Of a stretch of 64,000 bases of DNA, positions 1,659 through 58,273 are shown piece after piece. Positions within the stretch are counted from its first letter, which is position 1; each line of letters starts with the position of its first letter. The notes below the pieces were generated by a model that had not been told where the DNA came from, did no database searches, and saw only the letters and a program-made list of their open reading frames with translations. Source of the stretch: a virus. The DNA lies in IMG/VR virus record IMGVR_UViG_3300003653_000052, positions 1 to 64,000 of that record, one strand, 5' to 3'. A program made the translations under genes and the position numbers.

Positions 1659-1662
1659 CACA

Positions 1663-4393: not shown

Positions 4394-4436
4394 ACCAGAG
4401 AAGATAGTCACAAGATGATTCTTCTCTGGTTTTATG
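4394..4436 (+). terminator. intrinsic terminator
   Basis: ACCAGAGAAGA..TCTTCTCTGGT forms an 11-bp stem followed by TTT. Confidence 0.75.
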
Positions 4437-4516
4437 CTTAATAATAGAGTCTTAACTAAAATAAATAACTTTCATTTGGATATGAAAAATCAGGTTCTTC
4501 ATGAACCAAAAAACCG

Positions 4517-14569: not shown

Positions 14570-14592
14570 CAAACTAAAATTTAAATAAAAAT

Positions 14593-43800: not shown

Positions 43801-44102
43801 GACACTTCTTTTTGAAGTGCTTCTATAGATCTTTTAATTGTTTCTATATTGGCCCAGATAACATCTTTTTTAATAGTATCTTTTTCACCTATTAATTCTA
43901 GTTTTCTATTTTTTAATGATAAAATTTGTTTTTGATGAAGTGCTATTAACTTCTCATCTATTTTTTCTTCCTCCTCATAAAGATTAAGAGGATTTTCTTC
44001 AGTTATACCTTCATTAATTACATAAGAAGCTCTCTCTTCAGATACTTTTTCTGAATATTCTTCAAGTTCTTCATGACTTATTGGACAATTAATATCGCTC
44101 AT
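40875..44102 (-). CDS. large virion-associated (cargo-type) protein, 1075 aa, function unknown
   Basis: It is an uninterrupted 3.2-kb ORF and the last gene of the leftward giant-gene block. It has hydrophobic segments near the C-terminus (..YIIYMSLILMTLAALAG..). Confidence 0.8.
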   Translation of the reverse strand: MSDINCPISHEELEEYSEKVSEERASYVINEGITEENPLNLYEEEEKIDEKLIALHQKQILSLKNRKLELIGEKDTIKKDVIWANIETIKRSIEALQKEVSYNNIINVALRDLKEVNSILNKSKFSGRELIFIEATLNRIVILDEAIDKNMLDAEYRKKLQHTRTESLILLEKWKIGQSTNIENQSVEEGIPMTFERMNAAVKDISKTTLLFLGMDTTIIPILRLMDSRFETTRRKTNDAMFIFNKEFDAISAKYKDKDAIKKFLDASGRLITETKGSYFDEEKLMLTKVSTYLESTFKPNTTKSAYNRRMMYNHRDRWYMDRNNYTLTAEGEAIYNARLDSLKERLAMVNEDELLSPDDEAYIRHWENSNSPYLGLAYANTGVQTQGNNFWYRYLNQSPKAEFINPEFNKIKDDDLYKFVVNTITNGMKKIPHRMLVDLNSFDKVLNSILFDFNKEDTTILKRTWEGMGNWMNSTFRKAITQQDISGYSGKATDEKGNPKEKVYPKEIGELQKERRYTNPLDLIKDFYQLATAYEHKSEIEPDIWLLKGLLDKQKAIRVNKGITIHNMGDPSVIEGGLTNAKDLALYNILSELYGKRRLDAESNPPTEKEATQLKIQYRKWEILRAEAIQKGLPIPEEPILYKLSGVKVIDAIIDYTRINLMFLKPLSAIVNLTIGLENNFLHAARKIDFTDKELYQALRILGNSALNYTTLGKIPTSVAKKIKKANEVMGISEESFIEDSQTYTSKIAKFGLTWQTSGEYILASQLLIAKMKYERPAFLNGDNLWDAFDDDFNFNTEKYGELDPLYIKKIKDRVREIRKQTQGDYQSTMGIKSTVSGRVLMMFRTWLPRAIHQRFGAEIEGQFKGRYTTWRDVGQAYTEENGFWKGMGSLAGGTMLTLLTKIANIPGFSQLGMKSLSELCEEKYEKDLKKLGLTDLDIQNMRVNIRELQYIIYMSLILMTLAALAGKEPPDKEMNMTINTLTRLYQDMTFFYSFNSITAITKDPIPLYKTIRDGHKLVGNMWNYLDDPQSDIYKRGRHEGGSKTAQSFYKMVPGLSSYQSTLNTMDQIFSNRH

Positions 44103-44103
44103 A

Positions 44104-44601
44104 TTAACATAGTTTTTTTAGTAATTCATTAAAATCAGATATAGTTCTTGATGTGTTTAATTCTTCTTGTAATAACCCTTTTTCTAATCCTGTAAAACTA
44201 CTCATTATTATACCATTTTTAATACTATCATATGTTTTTTGTAAATTTGGAATAAGAGTAGTTGTTTGTTCTATAATAGTATTAATTTGAGAATCAGGTA
44301 TAAACTTTTCTTGAAATTCATCAACAAATTCTCTATTAACTACAGCAAAATCAGCGGCAAATGTATTTGCACCTTTATGACTATAAACATTAAGAGGACC
44401 AGTATGAGATAATCTTACAACATTAATATCAAAAAATAATCCTGGATTAGTAACTCCATGTTTAGATCTTGCTAAATCAGAATATAGTTGATTTAGAGTA
44501 TTAAATCTAACTAAATCTTCAATCCTGGTTGTACCATTCTTTAATACACCTTTTTTCCAAAGGTCTTTGAATCCTAAATCTATTACACTACACGTTGCCA
44601 T
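44104..44601 (-). CDS. hypothetical protein (165 aa)
   Basis: ORF track. It is separated by 1-3 nt from both giant neighbours. Confidence 0.65.
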   Translation of the reverse strand: MATCSVIDLGFKDLWKKGVLKNGTTRIEDLVRFNTLNQLYSDLARSKHGVTNPGLFFDINVVRLSHTGPLNVYSHKGANTFAADFAVVNREFVDEFQEKFIPDSQINTIIEQTTTLIPNLQKTYDSIKNGIIMSSFTGLEKGLLQEELNTSRTISDFNELLKKLC

Positions 44602-44604
44602 ATT

Positions 44605-47600
44605 TTAACATTTAAAAGGGTCATTACTATTTTCTAAAGTAGCTAGAGTTTTCTTATATACATCTCTAATTGCTTGTTTACCTATTTCAGTGGTATTACT
44701 ACTAGTACCTATACCAGCAAAGTTTTTAGTAAGAATAGGTGTATCTATTTTAATAAAATCATTTTCTTTCCATGTATACCAGCCTATATCATATTTATTT
44801 TTTATTTGATTAAATACATAAACAGGTTTATTTTCATTTATAGCCATTTGAACAGCACCACTAGTACCTCCATTAACTTGAGGTATTAATGCTATTTTAG
44901 TTACAGAACCTCCACTTAATGTTATGTTATCTCCTTTTGCAACTAAACTACCTATTGCAAATATAGCATCTGCATTTTTAACTTGAGCCCAATTTCTTAT
45001 TTTTTTACTATTTCTTGTTGTATGAGTAGGTTCTATTCGTCCCATTTGTCTTTCAGCAAGTGTTATTTTAAGTTGACCTTCTCCTACTTTGTTAGTAGAA
45101 GGTTTACCATTTCTATCTACACTACCTTCAGCAGCAGTTGCTACAGGTCCAACATCTTTTGTAGCATCTATGGGAGTTACTCCTTTATTTTGTAATCTTT
45201 TATCTGATACTGCTCCATCAGAAGGTAATAAATAATGTTTATGATTTATAAACTCAAAATCATTACCTATTAAATCCCATTCTGCATCATATCCTTGTGC
45301 TCCTCCTGAATGATTTATATAATCTTTTATATTATTAATTGTTGCGGTAGATACAGATTGTTCATCTATTTTTAAAAAAGCATCATTAAGAGCTTTGATA
45401 AACCAATTTTTACCTCCTGTTTCCCAAACAGTATTTTGTTTAGTTGGTTGATGAGTAGATGATAATATCCAAGCAGATCCTCCTACTTTATTTATTTCTT
45501 CAACAAGTCTAGGATGTTGTTTTAATTTTTCTTTAATAATTTGAACCATTAAATTATAAGTATTATTAGGCCCATCATCTTTAGTAGCTGTATTTTTAAG
45601 AGCTTGATAAGCAGCTTCAGCATCTTTATAAAATTTACTTTTAAAATCAACAGGATATGAATTTGATATATTACCTTTTGATTTAGCTAATTCAGTTGGA
45701 TTAGTAAGTGCTGCTCCTAATCCTTTAGCATTACTTGATATTTCAATACCATTAATTACTGTTGTTAGAACTGATGTGGTTTTACTTCTATTATTAATCA
45801 TTTCAAGTAATACATCAGCATGAGAAAAATAAGGATATGGTTTATAATAAAGTAATGTTTTACCATCTAAATTTCCAGAATTAATCTCTTTTAATATCCA
45901 ATTTCTTCTTTCTTGTTGAATATCTTGATGAGCAGTACCATTTAACCAATTTCTATAAGCTTCTGTAGCTTCTTTTACAGTAGGTACAATAATTAATCCG
46001 TCAACTAATCTACTAATAACTTTCCCATCTACTACTTTATCTTTTGGTGTACTCCATTGATTACCAAAATAATGAAACTCAGTTGCTTTAGTTAATTTCA
46101 TAATTCCTGCAGGTCTCATTGTCCAAATACCCTTAGCTGCAAAATAAGCTTCTTTAGCTGCTGCATAAGTTGAATAATTAATGACTTTAGCTGCAGGTGT
46201 AGGTACGATAGTAAGTTGAGGTTGTACTTCAAATACTGTATTTCCTTTTACTTTTTTAATTTCAGCATACATTTTATCACCAAATACAACATTTATTGGA
46301 ATTAATCTTCCTCCAAATGCATTGGCTAATTCATTTAAGCTATTTTTGTTTAAATTAGTATCTGAGTTATAGGGTATTATAAATCTTTTGTTTGGGTTAG
46401 CTCTAGCAACGGTATAAAGTTCTTGTATATTAGTTCCAAGTTCTACATAATTTAAAGGTTGTCCTGGTTTTTCAACAGTAATTAGTCCATATCCAGTACC
46501 TTTAGTTCCAACCATTAACCCAGTCTTTCCAGCTATTGCAAAATCACCTACTTTATTGTCAACTACATCTTTACTTAAATTTAGATTCCAGTTTCTATAA
46601 TTATCAGTAGTATTAGCATAAGCTAATGCTGCCATTCCTTGACCATGAAAACCTGCTCTATTTGCACCAAATACCATGACATCATTTTTACCAAACATAT
46701 CTTGAGATAAGTTTCCTGTAAAAGCAACTTTATTGTTAACAGTAGAAACAGGTTCAACATTCTTTTTAGTTAATTTAATATTATCTAATGTTTCAGTTCC
46801 CATAACTTTTCTTAATGTTAATACTGTTCTATAATTATCAGTTTTAACCATTTTATCAGCATGGCCTAATCCTGTAAATGCTTTATTAACAGTTAGTGTT
46901 GGAAATCCTTGAGGCATTGGTAAATCATTAGTTTCTTTATCAAAAACTATTTCATGCATTACATTTCTATTGTTTCCTGAAAATATAAGTATAGCTCCAT
47001 TATTTAAAATATATTCTGATTTAACAGTTCCTTTAAATGATTTAGGTAAAACATCTTTTACATAATCTATAATTTTTGTATCTCCTGTTTTTTCAGCATA
47101 TTTTAAAATATTAGAAGGTGTTATTTGTCCATAAGTAATTTTCTCTTTTAGGTTTTTAGTAACTAAATTTAAAGCAATTCTATATGGAGTTACATTACTA
47201 TCTGTTAAATTAAATTCATTACTGTCTTGTAATTCATAAGTAATAAATTTCATAGGTCTTCCTAATGAAATAGTAATAATTGGAGATTTATTAGTTTCTG
47301 TATTATCTTGATGTATTATTAAACTTCCATTATCTTCTTTATCATATACAGAGTTATAACTTGCTTCATATTCTGAAGCATCAATACCTTTAGTTGCTAA
47401 TAATTGAATGATATTTGAAGGTATATTTGGTAGTATTTTTCCATTTCTATCAATATTAGTATAGCCATATAAAGGAAATCCTCCAATTTGATTCATAGAT
47501 TCTCCTTTAACCCATCTATCTTTCATAGCTTGAGTAATAGATTTACCATTTAATTGTTTACCTACTACAAATCCTTTTTTAGTTTCAATAGACATTGTAT

Positions 47601-50600
47601 CATTTAATCTTACCCATCTGTGCCCAAAATCCCAAGATATTGAACCTTTAGTTTGTTTGTAAGAAGTTTCAGCAATTAAACCTTTAAAGCTATTTACTAA
47701 ATCAATACTTGTTTTTAAATCTATAGCATTTTCAATTATAATTAATCCATCTTCATTTTTAATAATCTTTTCATTAAGCATAGGTTGAGATGTAACAAGT
47801 GTAGTAACTTGTTTAATCATTTGTAAACCTGTTTTAAGATCTACATTAGAAATATATACTTCTCCTGATTCTAAATCTATTAAATCATATGTATCAGTAA
47901 GATTTAATATCCATTTAGCTGATTGAGGAGCTTTCTCACGTTTACTTGTTTGAGGATTATAGAATTCTTTAAATGTTGTTTTAGAAGTGAAAAACTCTTT
48001 AGGTAATTTACCTTCAGATTTAGTTAAATAACTTTTAAAAGCAGCAAGATCTTCAGAATTAATTATTTTTATTGTAATAATAGATTCTGGTAATATATAA
48101 TCAGGGTTTACAAATCCAAATTCTTTAAGTAATCTTTTATTTAAATGTTCTAAAACAAGTTTATCAGTAATATTATGACCATATCCTTTTTCATCAAATA
48201 TTAATGCAATACCTGATATTAAATCAAACACCATATTTTTAACACTTTCATCAATATCATTAATAGAATCTACTTTTATTTTAAAACCAGTATCTAAAAA
48301 ATCATCACCACTAGTAATGAAACGTGCTTTACCTAAATATATATCTGATATTATTTGTTTTTCATTTTCTGCAATATTTACTGTATTGAGAGTATAAATT
48401 CCTTCAATTGCAGTAGGGGTTATTCTATCAAATTCTTTATCACTAGTTATTATGTTTTCTCTAATAATCTCTTCTCCAGCCTTTTTAAGCTCTAAAACAT
48501 CTGTAGTAGAAAGATAGTTAATACCATTAATTCTTTGATTTAATTTTTTATTAGCTACAAGATTGTTTCTTAAAAATAAATTAAAAACAACCTCTAATAT
48601 ATCTTTATTCAAATTATGAGTTATTTTTTCAATAGCATCATTCATTATTAATGATTGAGCAGAACCTACAGGAAATATACTTGGATATGCAAATTGATGT
48701 TTATTCATACCACCTTGTAGAAAAGCATAAATAGAAAACTTTCTAAATAATTCAGATAATCTTTCATTATCTTCTCTGGCTTCTAAAGTATCTCCCATTA
48801 TTTTTTTAACAGAAGAATCAGATAATTTAGCAAGATCATCTGCATATTGTTCAGTGCTCTCTGGAGTTAAATCTCCTGAATCTTTTAAAGTAATATTTAC
48901 AAGACCTGATGCAAACTTATTTTTATTATTTGTATCATTTAAAGTATCTGAATAATAACTTGGTTGTAATTGTTGTATTATACCATATTTTGCTGAAAGA
49001 TTGTGTTTTTCTGAAAGATTATATTTATTAATAAGTGACATTAAAGTAGTAGCATAAGATGCAATACCAGACTGTTGATTATTAAAAAACATTGTTTTAA
49101 TATTATAAGAATTTTCTAAAGCTCTAGTTTTTAGATAATCTTCATAAATTAGTTCAGGAGTTCTTCCATCTTTTTTTTCTAATTTACTTGTAAAATAATA
49201 TGTTTTAGTAAACTCCTCCATAGGAGTAAGTGATCTTAATAATTCACGTTCTATAACAAAATCATAATAAGCTTTAGCACCTGCTAATTTACTTGTATAA
49301 TTATTAGGTAAATAAAATACATCTGAGGTAAGTGTTGATAATCCTTTTTTACGGTAAGATGTATCTCCAATAGCACTTAAAGTATAATCATTGTTTTTAA
49401 ATTCTTTTCTTAATATATTTTCATTAATATAAATAGCATCTGATTTAACTTCAACAGCATTTTTTCCCGTAGTAATATAAATTACAGGAGTACCCTTATA
49501 CATTTTGGATTTTCCTATTGAAAATGATTTAAGATTATTTACAAATAAATAATTCATTAAAGCATTTTTAAATCTTTTTGGAAAAGAATCTTTATCAAAT
49601 CCTGTTCTATCTCTAATAGTATTAATTTTTTTATAATCATTTAGAGTATCATAAATAAATTCATTTAAAAGATTATTATTTCTTAATGTAAACAATCTAC
49701 TGAATAAATCTTGTGCAAGTTCTGTTACTTTAAAAGCACGTATAGCACTTTCGTCAGTGATATACTTTATAATCTTAACCGGCATTTTAGTACTTGCAGT
49801 TACTTCATCAAGTCTTAATTGTCTAGAAAATACATCAAATAAATCCCCAGATTTAGTAGTATCAAAACTTGTTACTTTTCTTGGTTCATCAAAATTTGTA
49901 GCTAATTCTTCAATATATAAATAATGTAAAAAACCATTAATAGCATCTTTATCTTTAATACTATCTGAAAGTTTAGATTTAGCTATCTTTTCTAATTCTT
50001 TTGTAGTAAATATTCTATCTCCATGTTCTTTATTTAAATTTTCAGCAATAGCCACAGTGTCTCTCATATCCATAATGGTACCTGCTTTTTTAACCATTTC
50101 ATATATAGAGGTTCTTGCATTGGCTTTGGCAAATTCAGGACTACTATCTTGTTTCTTTAATCTATTTAACAATCCTTTATTAATCTTCATATTTTTAATA
50201 TATGCTCTTATTATAGGATTATTTACATAATAAATGACATCTTTTATAGGTACTCCTGATTCTAATAAAAATAAGATAATAGGAGTTACCTCTTTATTAC
50301 CTTGTATAAAAGCAATCCAAGCATCTTTTTCAGAATCTACATAACCATTCATTAATTGAGAAATGATTTCTGAAATTTCATGTTCATTATTTGAGTCATA
50401 TAAATTTGATAGAGATATTACTTTACGTTCTATACCATTTTCATCTAATATGATTATTCTATTGTGTTTTAATAATAATTTTGTAGGAACATTAATTATA
50501 ACATCTGTTTTCTTTTGAACACCTTCTTCATCTGGTACCATTCTTTTACTTATAAAAGGTACTTCAAAAGGTATATAAGCTCCAGCACTATTATAAACAA

Positions 50601-53600
50601 TATTACCTTTATTACCCAAAGCCGCAATACCTAATGCTTCTTTACTAACAAAGTTATCTGTGTGTTTCTTAAGATTAAACCCATATTCAAGATTACGTGT
50701 AGGACTTACTCCTTTTAAAGTAGGAGTTCCGTTTTTTCTTTTTGAAGACTTATAATCATAATCCTGAACATGTTTTTCCATATCATATGCTATGGGCTTA
50801 GTTTTATGAGTATCATTAGGAGTTAATAATCTTATGGCATTTTCAGGTAATTCAAGAATACTGATTATATCATTAATCAATGAGTTTTCTATAGCTTTGA
50901 TGAAGTTTCTTCTATGATCTTTTAATGCTGCATATTCTTTATTTAATTTTTTAAGTTCAGGATAATCTTTTAAATAATCTTTTTTTTCATCGTGTTTTTC
51001 ATTTAATGCTGTCTCAATTTCACTAAGTATTTTTGAATTTTCTTTAATATTATTAAATGCTGTAAGCATATCTCCTTTAGATAACATAGTAGGAACAGTT
51101 TTAAAATCATTAATGATTTTTACTATTTCTTTATTATCCCTAGAAGTCATAATTACATTTAACCCAGCATAAACTTTACTTACAGCGTTTTTATTTACAA
51201 TAAATGATTGTATATCACTTATATCTTGAGATAATACATCTTTTATATTAGTTTTTTGTATACCTAATGCTACAATTATCTTTCCCTTATCTGCTTTTTC
51301 TGAATAAAAACTATTTATTAAATCTTTAACTTTATCTCCTACAATACCTTCTTTAGTTAGTATTTTAGTTATTTTACTTTCTATTAGTTTTATTTCATTA
51401 TTTAATTCTTCTCTTGTTGCATATTTATCTGAAAACCATTCTCCTGTTTTACTAATTGTAGGCATATAAGTAGTTAACTTATCTACGTCAAAGTCAGTAC
51501 CAGATTTGGCTACAATTTCAGCAGGTAAGATTATAATATTACCTGCAATTGTGGGTAGAAATTCAGCTATTATAGCAAATTCCATAGAATTATGACCTTG
51601 AACAGGAATACGTACACCAGTTAATCTTAATTTTTTTCTATTATCTCCAATATTTAACCATTCTTCATCTCTAATTAATTGATTGAGTCTAGCTAAACTT
51701 CTATCAGTATTAAGAACATCTATAGTTTTTTTAGGATCTTTAGGATCTATAATTGTATCATATTGAGCAATTTCAATACCTTTAGTATCAAGAAGATTAT
51801 AAAGATTTAAAAAACTTCCTTGCATTGCAATTTTTACTTGACATCCAATTGTGACCTTAATACCATCAATGTCAGCAGTATAAAAATCTAAATCTCCATC
51901 ACCATATTTTTCTAATTCAGCATCAATGTTCTTAAACTTTAATGTACTGGATACAGAAACTTCAACTAAAGGTTCACCATTAACTAGTTGTTTAAGAATT
52001 TTGTTATTAAGAACAGCCATTAATTTCTGTTCAAATTTATCAGCAATAGGAGAACCACTAAGATCTCTCATTAATCCCCCTTGTCCATTATTCTCAATAT
52101 ATTCTAATTCATGTTTTGTTAACCCTTGTTTTTCTAATTCGTCATGTACAAACTGAATTAAACTACTTAAATTATCTTCAGGACCTTCATAATGTCCTGT
52201 TTTAGCATTCCAACTCCATCCAGTAATACTTGTTATTAAATCATGTTTTTTTATCTGAATTAATTTAGAAACTCTATCTTCATATGTTCTTACTAATTTA
52301 AAGAAAGGAGAGATGGCCATTTGTTCAGCTTCTGTTAATGCTTCCCAAGCAAGTGTTCTTTTTACACCAGATATATCTTTTGTTATAAAATCAATTGGAA
52401 TACCATTTTCAATTAATCCAGCAGATAATAAAGTACGTAATTGAGTAGACATAGCGGCATGTCCTTTAAACTCACTATTAATTTCTGTTTGATTTTTTAA
52501 ATAATCAACATAAATTGTATTTTTTGTTAATTGAACATTTGGTTTCATTTTACCAGTTTGTTCATCAAATACATCATCTGCTATTTGTTTATTATTATTT
52601 GTTATAGAAGATAATTTAGAACCAGATGAGTATGTAGCATATTGTACACTCTGTTTCATCATAGTTTCATGTAATTCTTCTAAAGGAGTTCCTTCTATTA
52701 CAGAAGGAATTAATGGAAATAATGCAAATTTATGACCAGATGTTATTGGTAATAACCCGAGTGCTGTTTTAAGATTACCTGCATATTGTAATTTATAAAC
52801 CGGAAAGAATTCAACTATATCTTCTGTTAAGATGGGTTCTTTTCTTACAATTTTTTGATAAATTCTTTCTTGATGATCACTCCAAGATCCTTCTAAGTCT
52901 TTTAATCTTCTATAAGCATCTAATGAAATATAACCTTGACCATCTGTTACAGTAGGATTTTCATAAGGATCCATCATTAAGTCTAATTCTGTAGATAACT
53001 CATTATCTTTTTTACCCTTTTTTATAAGATGTTTTTTAAAAAGTTCTCTTAACTTTTTATTTACATGAGCTCTTGGTGTTTTATAATCTTTAATAATAGC
53101 TGTATTAAAAGTGCCATTAAACAAATCATCAATACCTGTAAGTTGTTTTGTAAGTGCTGTTCCTAATATATTAGCATTATCTCTAGCTGCCCGATCTGTT
53201 GGAAACATAATACCACTTGATTGAAATAAAGAATATCTTTTAGTAGCTTCATCTTTAAAATGGTCATAAGTATGTAATTCACCATTATGTAATAAAGTGA
53301 TTTCATAATTATTTATCCAACTATTATAAGTAAAGGAAGCTAATGCAGCATTATTTAATCTTTCTACATATGCTGGTTCTTTCAATAATGATATATCTCC
53401 TTTTATTGATTTTACAATATTTTCACGTATTCCTGGAGCTGTATAACCATATTGAGATATTAAAACTTCTTTATATTCATTATTTAAAGTAGTAAAATAA
53501 TGTTTTAGTTCTGTTTTAATTTTTCCTAATAATACTTCACCTTTTGTAGTACTATTAAGTAAATCTAATAAAGTTTTATTTTTATTAGCATTATATTTGT

Positions 53601-56600
53601 TTAGTTGTTCTGTAGTTATTCCATTTGGTGCATAAGGATATATTCCATTTTCTAATTCTTTAGCAATATGTAATAGTTCCTTTTTAGTTGTTTCTTCAAG
53701 AACATCATCAAATACTACAAATTTTCCTACAATATCACCTATAAAGTTACCTTTCTTATCTAATTGACTAAATCCTTTATAGTTATCATATACGTCTTTG
53801 TTTTGATTATACTTATAAATTCTTTCTACTTCTGATTGAATATAAGGTAATAATATAGTAAATGCTTTTTCAAATCCTCTATGATTTCCTTCTTCGTCAG
53901 CTATAAATTCATCAGTTCCTACATATAAATGATTAAAACTTTTATTTTTTCCATCATAAGTTTTTATATTACTTAATTTGGTAGCATAATGTGTACTTTT
54001 TCCACCAGTTACAGGATGAATGACTACACCATCTAATAATAACATGTTATAATCACTAATAAATTTATCCATAGTATCCATAGCTGCTTGAGATGACCCT
54101 TCATCTTTGGAGTCATTTCCATTACGAACAATATAAGAGGTACCCGGAACATTTATTATATTTATACTAGTTTTTGTATGTTTACCATCTACTTTTGAAA
54201 ATAATGTATTTAATAATACAGAAGACTTAGCTGATGGATTATTAAAATGACTTAAATATGACATATAAGACCATTGACTATCTTCATTTGAGAAATCTTC
54301 AATATTAGTTGCTTCTTGTAGTGCATATGCATGTTTAGAGACTGTGGATTGTAATGCCATTTCATCTCTCTTTTCTCCATCTGGAGTAATTCTACTTGTA
54401 CTTGAATATTTATCAGAATGATCAGATTCAAGTCTGGCTAATTTATTTATAAAAGCACCGTGTTCTTCAATTTTAGTATTTAAGTAAGTTGTATTATTAT
54501 TACTGTCAATTACTTCTTCTAAACCATGATTTATTTTTGAAAAAAACTCAATAGGATCTATTATTTTAATAATAATTGGTGTTTTATCATCACTTTCTAT
54601 TAAATTTTTATTATTTAATAATCCTATAGCATTTGCTAATACGTTTATACTATTGATAATACTATCATCAATATTTATACTAGATACCGTTTCGGTATTT
54701 AATGTAAGATTAAGACCTATAGCATTTAAAAATTGTATATGATCATCAGTAGTATTTTTAACTGTATATGATATATGTGTTTTCTTATTTTTAATAGTTT
54801 CTTGTCTAATTAAAAACTTTTGTCTAATAGCATCAAGATGTAAATAATTTTCATTTTCAGATGTCTGTAATATATAAGGGCTTTCTTTAGTTTCAGCCAT
54901 CTTAAATTCTGATTGCCAATTAGATTTAACTTTATGAAAATCACCACCAGCTCTACCTGTTGTGGTAGTAACAATTGATGATATTACTTTACCATATTCA
55001 TTAGTTTCAACCTTATTTGTTATAGTATGGGAAATTAATTCTTGTTTTGTTTTACTAAATACTTTTACCATTTTAGACCATAAACGTCTTTGTTCAACAT
55101 TTCCTGAAGTAGGATGACCTAATCTAGCTAGTAATTGTTTAAATAAAATATTATGATTAACAACAGCTTCTTTTTCTATTTTATTATATAAAGTACTCAT
55201 ATAAGGAGTACTATTTAATCTTCTTATTAAAGCATTCTTAGTCATTGTATAATTTACTAGCATTGGAAAACCTAATGAATTTAATTCGTAAATTCCATCA
55301 CTAGTTTGTTGCAATAAGCTTTTGATTACATAAACCACTTGGTTATCAGCATCTTCATATGGATCTTTTGCATTAGGTCCTTTATCACCATAACCTGCTG
55401 AACTATTTTTAAATATATCTGCTGGATTACCATCAATATCTAATTCATCTTCTTTATTTGAAATTCTTAATAAATCATTAAAATCACTATTGATAAGATG
55501 ATATCCTACAACACCACTGTTATTTTCTTTTTGAGAAAAATTATCAACTGAATTTTGTATATTTCCAAAATTAGCTATAGTCCAGGCTAATATTTCAACA
55601 TTATGATCAAGAGTAGCTTTATCATCTGCTGATAATTTTGTGTTTTTTTGCTCCTCTATTAATTCAAGATGTCTTTTTTTTATTCTTCTTTCTACTTCTT
55701 CATAGATCTTTATTTTATTGGCATTAATAGTAAGTCCTCTTATTGTAAATAAAGCTCCATTTTCAGTTATTATTTTAGACATTAAAGCATCAATACTTTC
55801 TTTTACAAGTTTAGTATCAGTATGATTTAATCCATCATTTACATCAGCAATAGTTAACATACCAGCGTTTGCTATAGAGAATGATACATTTTCTACAGAA
55901 GGGGCATAATTATTTATATCTCCTACATAAAGAGCTTTGTACATCTCCTGTACGGATTTTATTGATTGTAAACCACTAACAGCATCTTGAATAGTAACTC
56001 CTTTGAAAATACTATTAATAAATTCCCATATTCTTTTAAATATAGATTTAGTAACTCCTTTTAAATTTTTAGCATCTCCTTTATTTATAGCAAAATCTCT
56101 AAATCCTTCAGCCAAATACTCTTCTAATTCTCTTTTAGTAGCTTTAGAAAATTCTCTATCTACTAATAAGGGTACTACATTTCCATTCTCATCTAATCCT
56201 CTACTGATAACTTTAAAGGTTCCTTTTAATTTAGAAGTTTCTTCATATAATTTATTTTTTTCTTCTTTAGTTAAGAATAGTTGACTAAATCCATGCCATG
56301 CTTCGTGATATATATGAGTGTCATCTGAACCATTAAATAATTTAATACCAGCCACTGACCAAGTAGCAAATGCTGTTGAATTAACTATATTTCTTAGTCT
56401 TTCTAATGAAATTGCCAATTCACCATTAATCTTAATTGTTGATAATGGACTATTAATCCACCATTTATCAGCAATTTTTTGTTGTTCTGGTGTTGTTTTT
56501 CTATCAATTAGTTTATTTAATTCAAGATTTAAAAAATTATTAGGTTCATCTATTATTGTATTTAATTTTGCAGCATTTTCTATTATTTTATCTTCTTCAA

Positions 56601-58272
56601 CTTTTGTTATTACAGGAGAATGATGCAAATAAAAATAACCATTTAAAGCTACTATTTTACCTTCATCATTAGGTACGGCATTAAGTTTAGTATACTTATA
56701 TACTAAATCAGTAAATTTTTTAGTTTCTTTTGTAACAATTCCATTAAGATCAACTGTAATATGAGTATAATCTGTATTTTTAATATGATCAGCACTAATA
56801 TTAAAGAATAAACGACTATTTAATAAAAGATTTAATACATCTTCTGATGTTGATTTACTTAATGTAATTGTTTTACCTCTTACTTCTAACATTAATTCTC
56901 CTCTAAGATCATAGATACTAACATGAGCTGAATCTTTAGCACTTTTTTTCATCTGAAGATATACCCTCAAATAATTAATTTTATCTTGATTAGTTAAATT
57001 TTTAGCAGAGGTCATTAATACATTAACTACTTGCTCTATATCATTACTAAAGTTATCGAGAGGTAGTGCTTCAATAATTATGTGCTTATCAACACCATCA
57101 ATTCTTATAGTTGTTTTACCAGATTTTGGATAAGAAATTTTTTGAAGAGCATCTTCTTGATTTTCAAATTTAAATTTTGATGTATTTGGATAACCACCTT
57201 TACCAGTACCTGGTTCATTTACATAACCGGTGCTTCCTCCAGTAAAATCAAGTAAAGTATTTCTTTTGGGATCCATTCTATAATAAGAAAGAATAGAATC
57301 CATATTTGCTTTTTCAAAATCTCTTTTATTTTCTAATTGTTCTTTATCATTAGCAATTTCAATATCAATTTGTTCTTTTGTAAGTTTTGTCTTTTCTAAG
57401 TTTTCTCTTCTTGTAGCTAAAGTTTCTTTAATAAAAATATTAATATCTGTTATAGTTCTTTCTCCAGGCATTAAAAATGAATAATAAATTGCTTGTCCTT
57501 TATCATTAATATTACCATCTTTATCAAAAAAATAAGGAATACCATTATTATCTGTAATTAATAAAACCATGTTTCGTTCATCTCTAGGATGTTCTAAATC
57601 AGCTATATTATCAGGTAATTGAGTTTCATTTATTAATTTAAGTTTAAATCCTTTTTTAAATGAATATACTAATTCTGAACTTGATGATAATCCATCATGA
57701 CGTAATTGAGTAATTAAATTGGCACGTATATCAATAGCTAATTGTCTAATAGGTTTTATGATACCTGTATATTTACCAGCTACTATTTTCGTATCACTTC
57801 CTGTAGATCTTTGTATACTAGATGCTATAGCAGAATTTCTCTCTACTATGTTTATAAGATCGTCACCAGTAATAATAGGGAGAATATTAGAACCAGATGT
57901 TGGTAATCCTTGTAAGGCATTGTCTATTTCTTCTTGATCAATTTTTTTAGGAATTATATAATCTAAAGCATTTTGAGAATCTGCAGCAAAGGATTTTGCT
58001 AAATGTCTTATTTCTATATTATGTTCTGTAGTAAATAATTCATTTGTTTCTTCCCAATTTAATCCTTCAATAGTTATCATATGCCTTGGTATAATAAGTA
58101 TATAAGCCAATGCAAGATCTGGATCTTTAGTTTTATCTAAAATGGTATCATAAATATCTTTAATATATAATTTTATATCAAGAGGTTCTTTAGATTTAGC
58201 AATATCAAATAAATCAGAAGCAATTTTTTTATAAAATTGTAAATGTTGTTCTTTAGTTAGTACACAGTTCAT
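44605..58272 (-). CDS. giant polyvalent virion protein (4555 aa) with a crAss-type two-barrel RNA polymerase core, an HExxH metallopeptidase and C-terminal AlkB/SLOG/DUF4326/NADAR-like modules
   Basis: It is a single 13.7-kb ORF. GVRIPVQGHNSMEF..(x27)..GTDFDVDK parallels the beta-prime R.P..H..S ... NADFDGD catalytic loop found in single-polypeptide DPBB RNAPs. The other modules are listed as separate sub-features. Confidence 0.9.
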   Translation of the reverse strand: MNCVLTKEQHLQFYKKIASDLFDIAKSKEPLDIKLYIKDIYDTILDKTKDPDLALAYILIIPRHMITIEGLNWEETNELFTTEHNIEIRHLAKSFAADSQNALDYIIPKKIDQEEIDNALQGLPTSGSNILPIITGDDLINIVERNSAIASSIQRSTGSDTKIVAGKYTGIIKPIRQLAIDIRANLITQLRHDGLSSSSELVYSFKKGFKLKLINETQLPDNIADLEHPRDERNMVLLITDNNGIPYFFDKDGNINDKGQAIYYSFLMPGERTITDINIFIKETLATRRENLEKTKLTKEQIDIEIANDKEQLENKRDFEKANMDSILSYYRMDPKRNTLLDFTGGSTGYVNEPGTGKGGYPNTSKFKFENQEDALQKISYPKSGKTTIRIDGVDKHIIIEALPLDNFSNDIEQVVNVLMTSAKNLTNQDKINYLRVYLQMKKSAKDSAHVSIYDLRGELMLEVRGKTITLSKSTSEDVLNLLLNSRLFFNISADHIKNTDYTHITVDLNGIVTKETKKFTDLVYKYTKLNAVPNDEGKIVALNGYFYLHHSPVITKVEEDKIIENAAKLNTIIDEPNNFLNLELNKLIDRKTTPEQQKIADKWWINSPLSTIKINGELAISLERLRNIVNSTAFATWSVAGIKLFNGSDDTHIYHEAWHGFSQLFLTKEEKNKLYEETSKLKGTFKVISRGLDENGNVVPLLVDREFSKATKRELEEYLAEGFRDFAINKGDAKNLKGVTKSIFKRIWEFINSIFKGVTIQDAVSGLQSIKSVQEMYKALYVGDINNYAPSVENVSFSIANAGMLTIADVNDGLNHTDTKLVKESIDALMSKIITENGALFTIRGLTINANKIKIYEEVERRIKKRHLELIEEQKNTKLSADDKATLDHNVEILAWTIANFGNIQNSVDNFSQKENNSGVVGYHLINSDFNDLLRISNKEDELDIDGNPADIFKNSSAGYGDKGPNAKDPYEDADNQVVYVIKSLLQQTSDGIYELNSLGFPMLVNYTMTKNALIRRLNSTPYMSTLYNKIEKEAVVNHNILFKQLLARLGHPTSGNVEQRRLWSKMVKVFSKTKQELISHTITNKVETNEYGKVISSIVTTTTGRAGGDFHKVKSNWQSEFKMAETKESPYILQTSENENYLHLDAIRQKFLIRQETIKNKKTHISYTVKNTTDDHIQFLNAIGLNLTLNTETVSSINIDDSIINSINVLANAIGLLNNKNLIESDDKTPIIIKIIDPIEFFSKINHGLEEVIDSNNNTTYLNTKIEEHGAFINKLARLESDHSDKYSSTSRITPDGEKRDEMALQSTVSKHAYALQEATNIEDFSNEDSQWSYMSYLSHFNNPSAKSSVLLNTLFSKVDGKHTKTSINIINVPGTSYIVRNGNDSKDEGSSQAAMDTMDKFISDYNMLLLDGVVIHPVTGGKSTHYATKLSNIKTYDGKNKSFNHLYVGTDEFIADEEGNHRGFEKAFTILLPYIQSEVERIYKYNQNKDVYDNYKGFSQLDKKGNFIGDIVGKFVVFDDVLEETTKKELLHIAKELENGIYPYAPNGITTEQLNKYNANKNKTLLDLLNSTTKGEVLLGKIKTELKHYFTTLNNEYKEVLISQYGYTAPGIRENIVKSIKGDISLLKEPAYVERLNNAALASFTYNSWINNYEITLLHNGELHTYDHFKDEATKRYSLFQSSGIMFPTDRAARDNANILGTALTKQLTGIDDLFNGTFNTAIIKDYKTPRAHVNKKLRELFKKHLIKKGKKDNELSTELDLMMDPYENPTVTDGQGYISLDAYRRLKDLEGSWSDHQERIYQKIVRKEPILTEDIVEFFPVYKLQYAGNLKTALGLLPITSGHKFALFPLIPSVIEGTPLEELHETMMKQSVQYATYSSGSKLSSITNNNKQIADDVFDEQTGKMKPNVQLTKNTIYVDYLKNQTEINSEFKGHAAMSTQLRTLLSAGLIENGIPIDFITKDISGVKRTLAWEALTEAEQMAISPFFKLVRTYEDRVSKLIQIKKHDLITSITGWSWNAKTGHYEGPEDNLSSLIQFVHDELEKQGLTKHELEYIENNGQGGLMRDLSGSPIADKFEQKLMAVLNNKILKQLVNGEPLVEVSVSSTLKFKNIDAELEKYGDGDLDFYTADIDGIKVTIGCQVKIAMQGSFLNLYNLLDTKGIEIAQYDTIIDPKDPKKTIDVLNTDRSLARLNQLIRDEEWLNIGDNRKKLRLTGVRIPVQGHNSMEFAIIAEFLPTIAGNIIILPAEIVAKSGTDFDVDKLTTYMPTISKTGEWFSDKYATREELNNEIKLIESKITKILTKEGIVGDKVKDLINSFYSEKADKGKIIVALGIQKTNIKDVLSQDISDIQSFIVNKNAVSKVYAGLNVIMTSRDNKEIVKIINDFKTVPTMLSKGDMLTAFNNIKENSKILSEIETALNEKHDEKKDYLKDYPELKKLNKEYAALKDHRRNFIKAIENSLINDIISILELPENAIRLLTPNDTHKTKPIAYDMEKHVQDYDYKSSKRKNGTPTLKGVSPTRNLEYGFNLKKHTDNFVSKEALGIAALGNKGNIVYNSAGAYIPFEVPFISKRMVPDEEGVQKKTDVIINVPTKLLLKHNRIIILDENGIERKVISLSNLYDSNNEHEISEIISQLMNGYVDSEKDAWIAFIQGNKEVTPIILFLLESGVPIKDVIYYVNNPIIRAYIKNMKINKGLLNRLKKQDSSPEFAKANARTSIYEMVKKAGTIMDMRDTVAIAENLNKEHGDRIFTTKELEKIAKSKLSDSIKDKDAINGFLHYLYIEELATNFDEPRKVTSFDTTKSGDLFDVFSRQLRLDEVTASTKMPVKIIKYITDESAIRAFKVTELAQDLFSRLFTLRNNNLLNEFIYDTLNDYKKINTIRDRTGFDKDSFPKRFKNALMNYLFVNNLKSFSIGKSKMYKGTPVIYITTGKNAVEVKSDAIYINENILRKEFKNNDYTLSAIGDTSYRKKGLSTLTSDVFYLPNNYTSKLAGAKAYYDFVIERELLRSLTPMEEFTKTYYFTSKLEKKDGRTPELIYEDYLKTRALENSYNIKTMFFNNQQSGIASYATTLMSLINKYNLSEKHNLSAKYGIIQQLQPSYYSDTLNDTNNKNKFASGLVNITLKDSGDLTPESTEQYADDLAKLSDSSVKKIMGDTLEAREDNERLSELFRKFSIYAFLQGGMNKHQFAYPSIFPVGSAQSLIMNDAIEKITHNLNKDILEVVFNLFLRNNLVANKKLNQRINGINYLSTTDVLELKKAGEEIIRENIITSDKEFDRITPTAIEGIYTLNTVNIAENEKQIISDIYLGKARFITSGDDFLDTGFKIKVDSINDIDESVKNMVFDLISGIALIFDEKGYGHNITDKLVLEHLNKRLLKEFGFVNPDYILPESIITIKIINSEDLAAFKSYLTKSEGKLPKEFFTSKTTFKEFYNPQTSKREKAPQSAKWILNLTDTYDLIDLESGEVYISNVDLKTGLQMIKQVTTLVTSQPMLNEKIIKNEDGLIIIENAIDLKTSIDLVNSFKGLIAETSYKQTKGSISWDFGHRWVRLNDTMSIETKKGFVVGKQLNGKSITQAMKDRWVKGESMNQIGGFPLYGYTNIDRNGKILPNIPSNIIQLLATKGIDASEYEASYNSVYDKEDNGSLIIHQDNTETNKSPIITISLGRPMKFITYELQDSNEFNLTDSNVTPYRIALNLVTKNLKEKITYGQITPSNILKYAEKTGDTKIIDYVKDVLPKSFKGTVKSEYILNNGAILIFSGNNRNVMHEIVFDKETNDLPMPQGFPTLTVNKAFTGLGHADKMVKTDNYRTVLTLRKVMGTETLDNIKLTKKNVEPVSTVNNKVAFTGNLSQDMFGKNDVMVFGANRAGFHGQGMAALAYANTTDNYRNWNLNLSKDVVDNKVGDFAIAGKTGLMVGTKGTGYGLITVEKPGQPLNYVELGTNIQELYTVARANPNKRFIIPYNSDTNLNKNSLNELANAFGGRLIPINVVFGDKMYAEIKKVKGNTVFEVQPQLTIVPTPAAKVINYSTYAAAKEAYFAAKGIWTMRPAGIMKLTKATEFHYFGNQWSTPKDKVVDGKVISRLVDGLIIVPTVKEATEAYRNWLNGTAHQDIQQERRNWILKEINSGNLDGKTLLYYKPYPYFSHADVLLEMINNRSKTTSVLTTVINGIEISSNAKGLGAALTNPTELAKSKGNISNSYPVDFKSKFYKDAEAAYQALKNTATKDDGPNNTYNLMVQIIKEKLKQHPRLVEEINKVGGSAWILSSTHQPTKQNTVWETGGKNWFIKALNDAFLKIDEQSVSTATINNIKDYINHSGGAQGYDAEWDLIGNDFEFINHKHYLLPSDGAVSDKRLQNKGVTPIDATKDVGPVATAAEGSVDRNGKPSTNKVGEGQLKITLAERQMGRIEPTHTTRNSKKIRNWAQVKNADAIFAIGSLVAKGDNITLSGGSVTKIALIPQVNGGTSGAVQMAINENKPVYVFNQIKNKYDIGWYTWKENDFIKIDTPILTKNFAGIGTSSNTTEIGKQAIRDVYKKTLATLENSNDPFKC
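44608..45339 (-). other. C-terminal SLOG/DprA-like Rossmann domain (aa about 4312-4555)
   Basis: It contains HSGGAQGYDAEW.., ..ADAIFAIG.. and ..VNGGTSGAVQMAINENKPVYVFNQ (compare SGGA.G.D..w ... GGT......A...gkPv.v). Confidence 0.45.
45367..45759 (-). other. NADAR (YbiA/DUF1768)-like domain (aa about 4172-4302)
   Basis: The segments SYPVDFKSKFYKDAEAAYQALK.., ..IIKEKLKQHPRLVEEI.., ..ILSSTHQ.. and ..VWETGGKNWFIKALNDAF are collinear with YbiA FSNF..PI.VDG..W.TSEHYFQA.K .. AL.AKF.QH..L .. LVEHT..D..WG.GG.G.N.LG.LLM. Confidence 0.5.
45787..46134 (-). other. DUF4326-like domain (aa about 4047-4162)
   Basis: It contains YFGNQWS.., ..ATEAYRNWLNG.. and ..LLYYKPYPYFSHADVLLEMI (compare GNPF..Y..WL..C.C.P..CHADVL, with Ser in place of the last Cys). 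Confidence 0.55.
46243..46728 (-). other. A1S_2505-like / SLOG-type Rossmann domain (aa about 3849-4010)
   Basis: VMVFGANRAGFHGQGMAALA..GYGLITVE..ANPNKRFIIPY follows the pattern VFGSN.AG.HG.GAA...G.SYAIPT...P...F of this phage-associated family. Confidence 0.6.
46804..47646 (-). other. AlkB-like 2OG-Fe(II) dioxygenase domain (aa about 3543-3823)
   Basis: LIIHQDNTETNKSPIITISLGRPMKF matches the HxD motif (compare AlkB LHQDKDE..PIVSVSLG). ILIFSGNNRNVMHEIV supplies the second His. NYRTVLTLRKV matches RxxxxxR. There is a long insert between the two halves. Confidence 0.8.
51481..51612 (-). other. RNAP catalytic DPBB segment (R2221 .. D2260-F-D-V-D2264)
   Basis: The codons were checked by hand: 51610-51612 encodes R and 51481-51495 encodes DFDVD. 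Confidence 0.8.
56293..56307 (-). other. HExxH zinc-metallopeptidase motif (HEAWH, aa 656-660 of the 4555-aa protein)
   Basis: IYHEAWHGFSQLF is followed about 60 aa later by EEYLAEGFRDF. This is the layout of zincin-like peptidase modules in phage polyvalent proteins. Confidence 0.6.
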
Positions 58273-58273
58273 A

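Follow-up and report, generated by a model that had tools for sequence, protein, structure and literature searches.

A single open reading frame (ORF) of 13.7 kb, located in the window (the 64,000 nucleotides at positions 1 to 64,000 of the IMG/VR virus record IMGVR_UViG_3300003653_000052), raises the question of what kind of protein it encodes and which of its parts are unusual. The original prediction described it as a fusion of a crAss-type RNA polymerase (RNAP) with an HExxH peptidase and five putative nucleic-acid- or nucleotide-modifying modules. According to the analysis presented here, the gene probably encodes a virion-packaged, host-injected DNA-dependent RNAP of an uncultured crAss-like phage, the tail of which would serve as a counter-defence and repair kit.

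Verification of the open reading frame

44605-58272, minus strand: whole ORF, 4555 aa, 514 kDa, three cysteines in all

The RNAP gene forms one unbroken ORF running from 58272 to 44605 on the minus strand with an ATG start codon, and no overlapping rival ORF of more than 101 aa was found for it. For a random run of 4555 stop-free codons in this AT-rich sequence (stop probability 0.095 per codon), the chance is ~1e-197. GC and GC3 are alike in the body and the tail of the ORF (GC3 0.04-0.12 throughout), and the codon-usage distance between body and tail (0.129) compares with a slightly smaller one between the two halves of the body (0.086). Composition and codon usage are thus uniform along the ORF and give no sign of an assembly chimera. 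A search for the exact 4555-aa protein in public assemblies did not find it; only a 6-kb contig carrying the DNA polymerase was recovered (JGI 3300003654).

It is extremely improbable that the ORF is an artefact resulting from a chimeric assembly or the false joining of separate genes. Such an origin would fit the contig of one relative, L001, where the homologous region is present as three ORFs in three frames, and the homologue of phage cr108_1, which is split after DxDxD. Against it, besides the even composition and the negligible chance of a spurious ORF of this length, the body is contained in one ORF in 135 of the 151 scored sequences (150 representatives and this protein) and in all complete IMG/VR loci. 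Furthermore, P0030, the closest relative, can be aligned collinearly along aa 1-3502 and once more along the last module. The predicted single polypeptide is therefore a real ORF, and the module boundaries proposed for it all lie near the positions found with profiles.

The RNA polymerase body

48373-55482, minus strand: rest of the family-wide body, aa 931-3300, homologue of the crAss-type virion RNAP
50194-52989, minus strand: core, aa 1762-2693, aligned to phi14:2 gp66 947-1659 by hhalign
51478-51612, minus strand: catalytic loop, aa 2221-2265, RIPVQGHNS...KSGTDFDVDK
50923-51375, minus strand: variable insert, aa ~2300-2450, located after the catalytic barrel and before the bridge-helix region

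The family profile of the whole body matched phi14:2 gp66 in three collinear blocks (E 5.6e-47) and the crAss phage cr108_1 (E 5.5e-104). With hhalign, the core was aligned to gp66 over 703 columns (probability 98.6%, E 8.3e-16), covering the gp66 landmarks connector, DFDID barrel, bridge helix and trigger loop. In the PDB, a profile of the catalytic region had a single match, 6vr4_A "DNA-dependent RNA polymerase" (E 6.7e-11). A set of 14 sequences was needed for this result, as no RNAP was recovered from the PDB by single-sequence and two-sequence profile searches. The region around aa 2200-2300, named beforehand as the place where a profile search could contradict the prediction, thus leads to the crAss-like RNAP structure 6VR4, and the assignment of the middle part as a homologue of the crAss-type two-barrel RNAP is upheld by all three lines of comparison.

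The motifs R2221-I-P, H2227-N-S and D2260-F-D-V-D are present as predicted, but the spacing from HNS to D2260 is 30 residues and not 27. All 151 sequences have R-I-P, K2256, G2258 and D2264, and 150 of them have D2260, D2262 and K2265. About a third of the relatives share the variable insert. Sequence comparison shows aa ~930-3300 to be a homologue of phi14:2 gp66 in which the catalytic loop has kept all its residues, and the alignment to 6VR4 indicates that the core would adopt the two-barrel fold.

Size and relatives of the family

56593-58272, minus strand: N-terminal region, aa 1-560, no assigned function
47653-48372, minus strand: end of the family body and a conserved segment of ~100 aa (aa 3387-3487), together aa 3301-3540

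Word-indexed searches with the core and with aa 3500-4050 gave one match each and had suggested an orphan lineage; this was overturned by an exhaustive HMMER scan, in which 2372 representative relatives could be identified. Among the complete relatives, the median length is 3543 aa and the longest chain has 5338 aa. The protein is therefore a member of a large environmental family with polymerases made as one chain of 3300-5300 aa. The body (aa ~560-3300) is found family-wide, including an invariant HExxH...EExxAExFR block. The N-terminal region has BLAST matches in ~40 of 150 relatives and is matched in 147 sequences of a local set of 179 by iterative HMM search; it has no match in Pfam, PHROG or NCBIfam. 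The segment aa 3387-3487 forms the extreme C-terminus in the relatives P0032 and P0113, and the closest relative P0030 is devoid of aa ~3503-4314.

With 4555 aa versus 2180 aa for phi14:2 gp66 (ratio 2.09), the estimate of roughly twice the size of the structurally characterised virion RNAP was right. Contrary to the original prediction, neither its great size nor the N-terminal ~560 aa nor the HExxH block marks the protein as a special fusion; all three are the norm in this large family. Among the features of the 4555-aa protein, only the five-module tail is distinctive.

The HExxH region

55483-56550, minus strand: HExxH region, aa 575-930, putative metal-binding or gluzincin-like domain
56293-56307, minus strand: HEAWH motif, aa 656-660
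56098-56124, minus strand: EExxAExFR helix, aa 717-725, candidate third metal ligand

The HExxH region is present family-wide, and 136 of 136 relatives have H656, E657 and H660. The EExxAExFR motif is invariant in a diverse set of 15 sequences, with E717, E718 and E722 on a predicted helix. The structure model is mostly helical with one beta-hairpin. No match to any peptidase was found in Pfam, PHROG or NCBIfam, the sequence-profile search of the PDB gave chance matches only, and Foldseek matched no peptidase fold (best E 0.15, model pLDDT 68). Of the predicted HExxH peptidase, the HEAWH motif was confirmed and found to be invariant, with a distal Glu-rich helix in addition; a peptidase profile or fold was not recovered. 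A likeness of the HExxH...EExxAExFR arrangement to anthrax lethal factor or MtfA was not supported by the PDB profile and Foldseek searches. Homology to the HExxH of phi14:2 gp65 was not detected either.

Most likely, the domain binds a metal. Once ejected, it may cleave the giant chain itself or a partner, which is the least secure step of the proposed explanation. It is quite possible that the block is not a protease at all. It would then be a metal site with a structural or regulatory role, or a non-proteolytic hydrolase, and would hold the polymerase inactive or keep it folded for packaging, comparable to the HExxH-bearing C1 subdomain in the C-terminal domain of the N4 virion RNAP or the cleft-blocking element of gp66. 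The failure of every search to recover a peptidase family or fold agrees with this, as do the mostly helical model lacking the usual zincin beta-sheet, the function of gp66 as an RNAP without such a block, and the N4 enzyme, in which a conserved HExxH subdomain with no assigned role lies inside the autoinhibitory C-terminal domain. However, the arrangement of HExxH and, ~56 residues on, an invariant Glu-rich helix corresponds to the classical ligand pattern of gluzincins. In zincins, the Glu of HExxH acts as the general base, so the invariance of E657 (136/136) argues for catalysis over mere metal binding.

Gene block, cysteine depletion and predicted packaging

58274-63964, minus strand: upstream giant gene, 1896 aa, one cysteine, in the position of phi14:2 g067
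40875-44601, minus strand: two downstream genes (165 aa and 1075 aa) at the end of the block, which converges on the replication module

The stop codon of the upstream giant gene lies 1 nt from the RNAP start, and the two downstream genes together weakly resemble phi14:2 gp65, the "RNAP-associated protein". As in phi14:2 and eight IMG/VR genomes, three giant genes converge on the replication module. Cysteine accounts for 0.10% of residues in the four minus-strand proteins versus 1.35% in the replication proteins (13-fold, p 8.5e-23), and phi14:2 gp65, gp66 and gp67 show the same low level. The tail contains one cysteine in 1255 aa. This depletion resembles that of proven virion proteins and therefore supports delivery of the whole molecule. 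From earlier work, phi14:2 gp66 is known to be a virion component that is delivered into the cell, and in crAss001 three RNAP-associated proteins are packaged in the capsid as cargo and have to unfold in part on leaving it.

We infer packaging and co-delivery from homology, synteny and cysteine depletion; proteolytic processing and the enzyme activities of the tail are likewise predicted. The giant RNAP would be packed into the capsid as cargo together with the neighbouring giant proteins and threaded, partly unfolded, through the phage tail ahead of or with the DNA. Such a passage would explain the near absence of cysteine. After entry, the RNAP would refold and transcribe the early genes. 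It is very improbable that the protein is a non-virion polymerase made during infection, with a tail acting late. Phages such as P23-45 and N4 are described as encoding both virion and non-virion RNAPs, but the gene studied here is part of the giant-gene block, the products of which are virion cargo in phi14:2 and crAss001, the cysteine depletion is as extreme as in proven virion proteins and 13-fold relative to replication proteins of the same genome, and no second RNAP gene was seen within the 64-kb window.

The crAss-like placement was derived solely from the RNAP block, since the window does not include the capsid, portal and terminase genes. As a taxonomic marker, the DNA polymerase was uninformative (≤34% identity to many unrelated phages).

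Modules of the C-terminal tail

The tail (aa ~3300-4555, ~1250 residues) carries five modules:

46783-47652, minus strand: AlkB-like Fe(II)/2-oxoglutarate dioxygenase, aa ~3541-3830 (PF13532)
46228-46740, minus strand: A1S_2505-family domain, aa 3845-4015, with an insertion of ~20 aa (NF049995, phrog_2072)
45769-46215, minus strand: DUF4326-like domain, aa 4020-4168, weak assignment (PF14216)
45358-45771, minus strand: shortened NADAR-like domain, aa 4168-4305
44608-45357, minus strand: DprA-like (SLOG-type) Rossmannoid domain, aa 4306-4555 (phrog_768)

The prediction of an AlkB-like module was confirmed by a match to Pfam PF13532 over aa ~3596-3821, with 33.4 bits on a tile (cut-off 31.2) and 27.9 bits with the whole protein as query. 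All catalytic residues are present (H3654-x-D3656, H3773 and R3815-x5-R3821), comprising the iron triad HxD...H and the 2-oxoglutarate motif Rx5R. The NCBIfam equivalog for orthologues of E. coli AlkB scored 21.2 bits versus a cut-off of 231; judged by these profiles, the module is a member of the superfamily and not an AlkB orthologue.

The A1S_2505 label was borne out by matches to NCBIfam NF049995 (E 3.5e-11, best stretch aa ~3916-3998) and phrog_2072 (E 4.5e-12). With 43.3 bits, the module falls just under the NF049995 cut-off of 45 because of the ~20-aa insertion; its family relative reaches 116 bits (E 9e-34). For the DUF4326-like domain, the match to Pfam PF14216 over aa ~4069-4157 is below the threshold (14 bits, cut-off 25, E 0.085) but recurs, as weak matches were obtained for 6 of 14 relatives (best 0.027). 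The R, G-N-P, W and S-H-A motifs are invariant within its own family. This part of the structure model is poor (pLDDT <60) and unusable, so the label was retained only as a weak assignment.

The NADAR-like module is 55-83% identical to its counterparts in many unrelated multidomain proteins. It is ~25 residues short of the canonical domain, and on its own, the module of the 4555-aa protein gave no Pfam NADAR match. With hhalign it was aligned to YbiA (84.8%, E 6.6e-6), one of 15 module relatives matches Pfam NADAR (PF08719, E 5e-4), and Foldseek found a NADAR-annotated viral protein (probability 0.97, E 0.024). In the PDB profile search, YbiA (2b3w) appeared with E 0.28. This moderate but specific support favours a shortened NADAR domain for aa 4168-4305, as had been predicted.

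The terminal module, predicted to be SLOG-like, is a DprA-like Rossmannoid domain of the SLOG type according to phrog_768 (E 1.3e-3; 7 of 9 relatives match, best 6.9e-13) and a tblastn search that found crAss "DprA-like" genes (E 8e-18). It is also terminal in P0030 and occurs inside the N4-like virion RNAP of Pylas. Membership in the cpYpsA subfamily was rejected (hhalign probability 0.8%).

Sequence-profile searches of the PDB with the NADAR, DUF4326 and terminal SLOG modules gave no significant match, and the model of the whole three-module tail gave generic Rossmann-like matches only in Foldseek versus PDB (E ≥ 0.04). For the tail alignments, module-specific and collinear sequence sets were used, since mixed fragments piled onto the NADAR module in MAFFT.

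Shuffling and proposed function of the tail

Among 150 relatives, 123 have no tail module and 27 have one or two at varying positions, 25 of these only one; none has AlkB or more than two tail modules. The same modules were found in helicase-, HD- and methyltransferase-containing proteins. The theme of polyvalent proteins invoked in the original prediction is thus reflected in the shuffling of these modules, and on the basis of these comparisons the tail is a lineage-specific string of five independently shuffled modules with putative enzyme activities.

It has been proposed that viruses use fusions of SLOG, DUF4326 and NADAR to process ADP-ribose derivatives and that such systems are often packaged in the virion (PMC9503650); NADAR reverses the guanine ADP-ribosylation by DarT1 (PMC11543638). 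The tail would enter before the expression of any phage gene, and would therefore be a kit for counter-defence and repair that is ready on arrival. AlkB would strip alkyl lesions from single-stranded DNA or RNA. The cassette of A1S_2505, DUF4326-like, NADAR and DprA-like SLOG modules would free modified DNA bases of ADP-ribose (DarT-type defence) and/or break down immune signals derived from ADP-ribose.

Alternatively, the tail might aid the polymerase's own work, which is rather unlikely. The DprA-like domain would then hold the single-stranded template or load the enzyme onto incoming DNA, and AlkB, NADAR, DUF4326 and A1S_2505 would handle phage transcripts or nucleotides, e.g., NAD-capped or damaged RNA and by-products of RNA repair. 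DprA-family domains bind single-stranded DNA, in line with such a role; this module is also the one kept in P0030, and it lies directly before the polymerase domain in the unrelated virion RNAP of Pylas. The 2022 survey (PMC9503650) noted that NADAR is associated with RNA repair and that SLOG is fused to enzymes acting on nucleic acids. However, most relatives lack the modules and nearly all carriers have a single one, so the modules are dispensable for transcription. Moreover, the NADAR module is shuffled among polymerase-free proteins containing helicase, RelA/SpoT-HD or DUF7831 domains, and the anti-DarT activity of NADAR has been demonstrated.

In an extended version of the counter-defence reading, which we consider decidedly unlikely, the tail would work in cis on the template: NADAR, DUF4326, SLOG and AlkB would de-modify the DNA ahead of or behind the tracking RNAP, and the HExxH domain would then cut the chain. 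If true, this would be a phage-delivered, transcription-coupled de-modification removing ADP-ribose and alkyl groups, and the cut after ejection would free or activate parts. Such "self-escorting" virion polymerases would make up a new functional class, at which crAss-type and N4-type enzymes would have arrived independently.

Significance

The 4555-aa protein is a true relative of the crAss-like injected RNAP, and its unusual part consists of AlkB and four modules that are thought to act against ADP-ribose-based immunity. Both the ADP-ribosylation of phage DNA by DarT and alarm signals derived from ADP-ribose take effect within minutes after infection. Enzymes joined to the first protein to enter would outpace any counter-measure that depends on gene expression. 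Together with this protein, the 2372-member family offers a natural series with zero, one, two or five modules in which pre-made counter-defence could be tested.

For annotation, it follows that in environmental crAss-like phages a single-chain polymerase of 3300-5300 aa with an invariant HExxH domain is the rule and the crystallised 2180-aa gp66 the short form, which corrects a likely trap. Furthermore, cysteine depletion is common to proven virion cargo, the whole family, an N4-type virion RNAP and the multidomain proteins that share the modules, and could be a cheap sequence signature of injected phage proteins.

Comparison with known systems

Homology to phi14:2 gp66 (PDB 6VR4) extends over gp66 ~171-1730, including the DFDxD barrel, the connector, the bridge helix and the trigger-loop region, and both genes occupy the same slot in a giant virion gene block with the same cysteine depletion. 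In contrast, gp66 has 2180 aa, lacks the HExxH block, the ~560-aa N-terminal region and the enzymatic tail, and is just ~23-29% identical in the best blocks. In cr108_1 (Steigviridae; gp_22606 and gp_22607), a YHE.FH...EE.LAE.F block is likewise fused upstream of the RNAP body (HExxH block E 1.1e-16, body E 5.5e-104), whereas ~1460 aa precede this block, the gene is split directly after DxDxD, and no AlkB, NADAR or SLOG tail was detected in the matched parts.

The virion RNAPs of N4-like phages (N4 gp50; Klebsiella phage Pylas gp65) are also giant injected polymerases of 3500-3800 aa. That of N4 has its own conserved HExxH subdomain, and Pylas gp65 has the same DprA-like module (E 6e-50) and zero cysteine. 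However, their fold is the T7-like single-subunit fold and not the two-barrel one, and the family body profile gave no match to them. The virion RNAP of Thermus phage P23-45 (5002 aa; bioRxiv 10.1101/2022.12.01.518664), compared by description only, is a two-barrel enzyme within a giant multifunctional virion polypeptide, but is described as fused to the tail tape-measure protein and not to counter-defence enzymes.

Polyvalent proteins (Iyer et al., 2017, PMC5512222) similarly combine several unrelated, shuffled enzyme domains per chain that are presumed to be co-delivered with DNA; here, unlike in those proteins, the scaffold is the two-barrel virion RNAP itself, and crAss, NADAR, DUF4326, AlkB and SLOG are not mentioned in that survey. 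The viral SLOG/DUF4326/NADAR/Macro architectures (Iyer et al., 2022, PMC9503650) fuse the same domain set, which is predicted to counter ADP-ribose-based immunity early in infection. These systems are described as typically standalone or small fusions, mostly from myoviruses and jumbo phages, whereas here the cassette and AlkB form the C-terminus of a 514-kDa polymerase.

ORF integrity and gene neighbourhood

The 4555-aa protein is encoded by a single ATG-initiated ORF of 4555 codons (positions 44605-58272, minus strand), and no overlapping ORF longer than 101 aa was found across this region in the other five frames. At the G + C content of the window (27%), a stop is expected about once per ten codons and the probability of an ORF of 4555 codons is around 1e-197, which confirms the uninterrupted 13.7-kb ORF of the original prediction. 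G + C content, third-position G + C and codon usage stay uniform along the whole chain, tail included; the fusion of polymerase and tail is therefore no assembly chimera. No exact record of the protein itself was found in public assemblies; the 6-kb contig SLW08_100413 (JGI 3300003654, L007) encodes the DNA polymerase of the window exactly. The gene neighbourhood is organized as follows.

1-39150, plus strand: replication module with DNA polymerase, ligase, primase, several helicases, exonuclease and ATPase
3460-39150, plus strand: ORFs used for the comparison of composition
40875-63964, minus strand: giant block of four tightly abutting genes encoding 1896, 4555, 165 and 1075 aa, converging on the replication module

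The same layout is found in Cellulophaga phage phi14:2, where g067, g066 (RNA polymerase, RNAP) and g065 converge on the replication genes and mass spectrometry identified all three products in virions. Weak matches link the 165-aa and 1075-aa proteins to the N- and C-terminal ends of gp65, the "RNAP-associated protein" (E 3e-4 and 4e-4); the gp65 homologue seems, from these alignments, to be divided into two ORFs at 40875-44601. The stop of the upstream giant gene lies 1 nt from the ATG of the 4555-aa ORF (58270-58276), and the downstream gene begins 3 nt past its stop (44601-44607). Such nearly spacerless genes suggest one operon with coupled translation.

A tRNA-Lys (anticodon ttt) was called by ARAGORN at 14479-14570. 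With 92 nt versus the usual ~75 nt, the call may contain an intron or be false.

RNA polymerase core

Single-sequence searches with the 4555-aa protein were nearly blind. HMMER was run exhaustively with a core profile of two sequences and yielded 2372 representative proteins (938 with E <= 1e-30), the best 150 of which were used for a family profile. This profile matched crAss phage cr108_1 (Steigviridae) with E 5.5e-104, the match running on into the next ORF, and gp66, the virion RNAP of phi14:2, with E 5.6e-47 in three collinear blocks including DFDID 1361 and the trigger-loop region. It gave no match in gp65, gp67 or the N4-like virion RNAP of Klebsiella phage Pylas. By hhalign, aa 1762-2693 were aligned to gp66 947-1659 (98.6% probability, E 8.3e-16), a region that comprises the connector, catalytic barrel, bridge helix and trigger loop according to published landmarks.

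The catalytic motifs are RIPVQGHNS from aa 2221 and DFDVD from aa 2260. R2221-I-P, K2256, G2258 and D2264 are invariant in all 151 aligned family sequences, while D2260, D2262 and K2265 are conserved in 150 of them. A 14-sequence profile of aa 2085-2300 was compared with the whole PDB and had a sole match, 6vr4_A ("DNA-dependent RNA polymerase", E 6.7e-11), with an alignment extending across R-I-P...DFD-x-DK. Since this profile recovers 6vr4_A alone, the RNAP signature predicted near aa 2200-2300 holds, and the middle of the protein is, on sequence homology, assigned as a crAss-type RNAP homologue. The predicted motif positions (HEAWH 656, RIP 2221, DFDVD 2260) were correct, but 30 residues, not 27, lie between HNS and D2260.

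HExxH block

All 136 relatives compared retain H656, E657 and H660 of the HEAWH motif at aa 656, and Y655, F662, Q664 and Y676 are nearly invariant. A diverse 15-sequence alignment revealed a second invariant block, E717-E-x-x-A-E-x-F-R725. In an AlphaFold model (pLDDT 68), both blocks are located on helices, with a helix and a beta-hairpin in between; as aligned and modelled, this arrangement corresponds to the gluzincin ligand pattern. Searches of Pfam, PHROGs, NCBIfam, PDB sequence profiles and Foldseek returned no peptidase family or fold. The predicted motif stands, and the name "peptidase" is unproven. A metal-dependent hydrolytic function is likely; self-processing of the giant chain is only possible.

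The block is not special to the 4555-aa protein. It is likewise fused upstream of the polymerase in cr108_1 (E 1.1e-16), but is lacking in gp66 of phi14:2. No relation between it and the HExxH of phi14:2 gp65 was detectable. The unrelated N4 virion RNAP also has a conserved HExxH subdomain.

Size and architecture across the RNAP family

The original prediction put the size at roughly twice that of the structurally characterised crAss-like virion RNAP. In the 135 sequences that have a complete body, the one described here included, the median length is 3543 aa (interquartile range 3428-3833, maximum 5338), so that giant size is the norm of the family and the 4555-aa protein, fifth in total length, is not an outlier. 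Its pre-body region has 561 aa versus a family median of 708 aa, and its post-body tail, the fourth longest, has 1256 aa versus a median of 229 aa. BLAST coverage of aa ~600-3250 is common to 130-148 of the 150 relatives; aa 1-550 are covered in about 40 and aa 3500-4555 in 0-9. Eight viral contigs from IMG/VR, the longest of 129 kb, carry the same block of three giant genes, with fused RNAP genes of 3420-4409 aa.

Split genes, found in the relative contig L001 and in cr108_1, are exceptions. In L001 (2-12527), the only relative from the word-indexed search, the homologous region apparently consists of three genes in three frames, which may be a true split or result from frameshift errors; the third gene encodes the end of the RNAP body, a DprA-like module, an SF1 helicase and an AlkB-type domain. 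The cr108_1 homologue ends just after DxDxD and resumes 290 nt on in another frame (L002 10404-10695). The break may reflect an intron or some other recoding event, as described for RNAP genes of crAss-like phages.

A conserved segment of ~100 aa (aa 3387-3487, window 47812-48114) is internal here and forms the extreme C-terminus of the family members P0032 and P0113; both of its flanks can thus accept accessory modules. The segment may serve in packaging or docking.

Tail modules

Five modules were delimited in the tail, all encoded on the minus strand.

aa ~3541-3830, minus strand: AlkB; PF13532, 33.4 bits on the tile against a curated cut-off of 31.2, E 7e-8
aa 3845-4015, minus strand: A1S_2505; NCBIfam NF049995 E 3.5e-11, phrog_2072 E 4.5e-12
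aa 4020-4168, minus strand: DUF4326-like; DUF4326 E 0.085, weak matches in 6 of 14 relatives
aa 4168-4305 (window 45358-45771), minus strand: NADAR-like; hhalign to E. coli YbiA 84.8%, E 6.6e-6
aa 4306-4555, minus strand: terminal DprA-like module; phrog_768 "DprA-like" in 7 of 9 relatives, best E 6.9e-13

The predicted AlkB-like dioxygenase was borne out by its score above the cut-off and by a complete iron triad and Rx5R (H3654-x-D3656, H3773, R3815-x5-R3821). The module lies a long way from NCBIfam's equivalog for E. coli AlkB. The A1S_2505 label was upheld by NCBIfam, where a family relative reaches NF049995 with E 9e-34. For the DUF4326-like part, the match is weak and below the threshold level, and the structure model is unusable. 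The NADAR-like module aligns to YbiA in the E-x-x-[YF]-Q-x-x-K and K-[LF]-x-Q-H helices and in the H...W-x-x-GG loop, and lacks ~25 residues. One of its relatives reaches Pfam NADAR (5e-4), and its model (pLDDT 74-94) matches a "NADAR domain-containing protein" in BFVD with a probability of 0.97. With the terminal module, tblastn retrieved crAss-phage "DprA-like" genes (E 8e-18). cpYpsA was tested as its family and rejected.

Distribution and mobility of the modules

Tail modules other than AlkB occur in 27 of the 150 RNAP-family representatives (25 with one, two with two), a few being located near the N-terminus; AlkB occurs in none of the 150. The 4555-aa protein has the richest combination among these closest representatives. 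P0030, the relative closest to it (50% identity over aa 582-3502), passes from the body directly to the DprA-like module, so AlkB, A1S_2505, DUF4326 and NADAR (aa ~3503-4314) are extra here.

The NADAR module is 55-83% identical to copies in metagenomic proteins with SF1 helicase, RelA/SpoT-HD, DUF7831 or cpYpsA, and a DNA methyltransferase is fused to a further copy of the AlkB piece. Judged from these matches, the tail modules are mobile parts. The NADAR identity of up to 83% across otherwise unrelated proteins, versus 25-50% for the polymerase body among relatives, suggests that this module is very strongly constrained or was transferred recently. The methyltransferase fusion is P0179 (347 aa, JGI metagenome), with a 53%-identical partial AlkB-like copy and an N6/N4 DNA methyltransferase domain, an odd pairing of a demethylase-type fold with a methylase.

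Cysteine depletion as a hint of delivery

Only 3 cysteines are present in the 4555 residues, and the 1255-aa tail has one, its final residue. The four minus-strand proteins contain 0.10% Cys, versus 1.35% for 26 ORFs on the plus strand of the window (p 8.5e-23, Fisher test). Across the RNAP family the median is 0.057%; phi14:2 gp65, gp66 and gp67, verified in virions by proteomics, have 0.06-0.09%, and the Pylas virion RNAP has no Cys in 3819 aa. An average of 0.26% was obtained for the multidomain proteins that share modules with the tail, and ~1.6-1.7% for P0179, with its methyltransferase domain, and the cyanobacterial P0028. The cargo proteins of crAss001 must unfold in part to traverse the tail, as published. 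A chain without disulphide-forming residues would suit such a partly unfolded exit route, for body and tail alike. The depletion is an independent hint of delivery for the 4555-aa protein and may prove to mark injected phage proteins in general.

Comparison with known systems

Homology, gene context and composition together give good support for an injected crAss-type polymerase with a polyvalent enzymatic tail. The predicted fusion of an RNAP core to enzymatic modules is retained. Viral fusions of SLOG, DUF4326, NADAR and Macro were predicted to process ADP-ribose derivatives in a 2022 survey (PMC9503650), which describes such proteins as often packaged in virions but "typically standalone". 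NADARs reverse the DarT1 ADP-ribosylation of guanine, and orphan phage copies serve counter-defence (PMC11543638). No link between crAss-type polymerases and NADAR was found in the literature searched, and mentions of these tail domains are absent from the 2017 polyvalent-protein paper (PMC5512222). What is new, on domain assignments, is the fusion of this known viral cassette and an AlkB-type dioxygenase to a virion RNAP of predicted two-barrel fold. The virion RNAP of Pylas (L003 9334-20793), with an unrelated polymerase fold, carries the same DprA-like SLOG module at aa 982-1161 (E 6e-50), which appears to have been gained independently by two kinds of injected polymerase.
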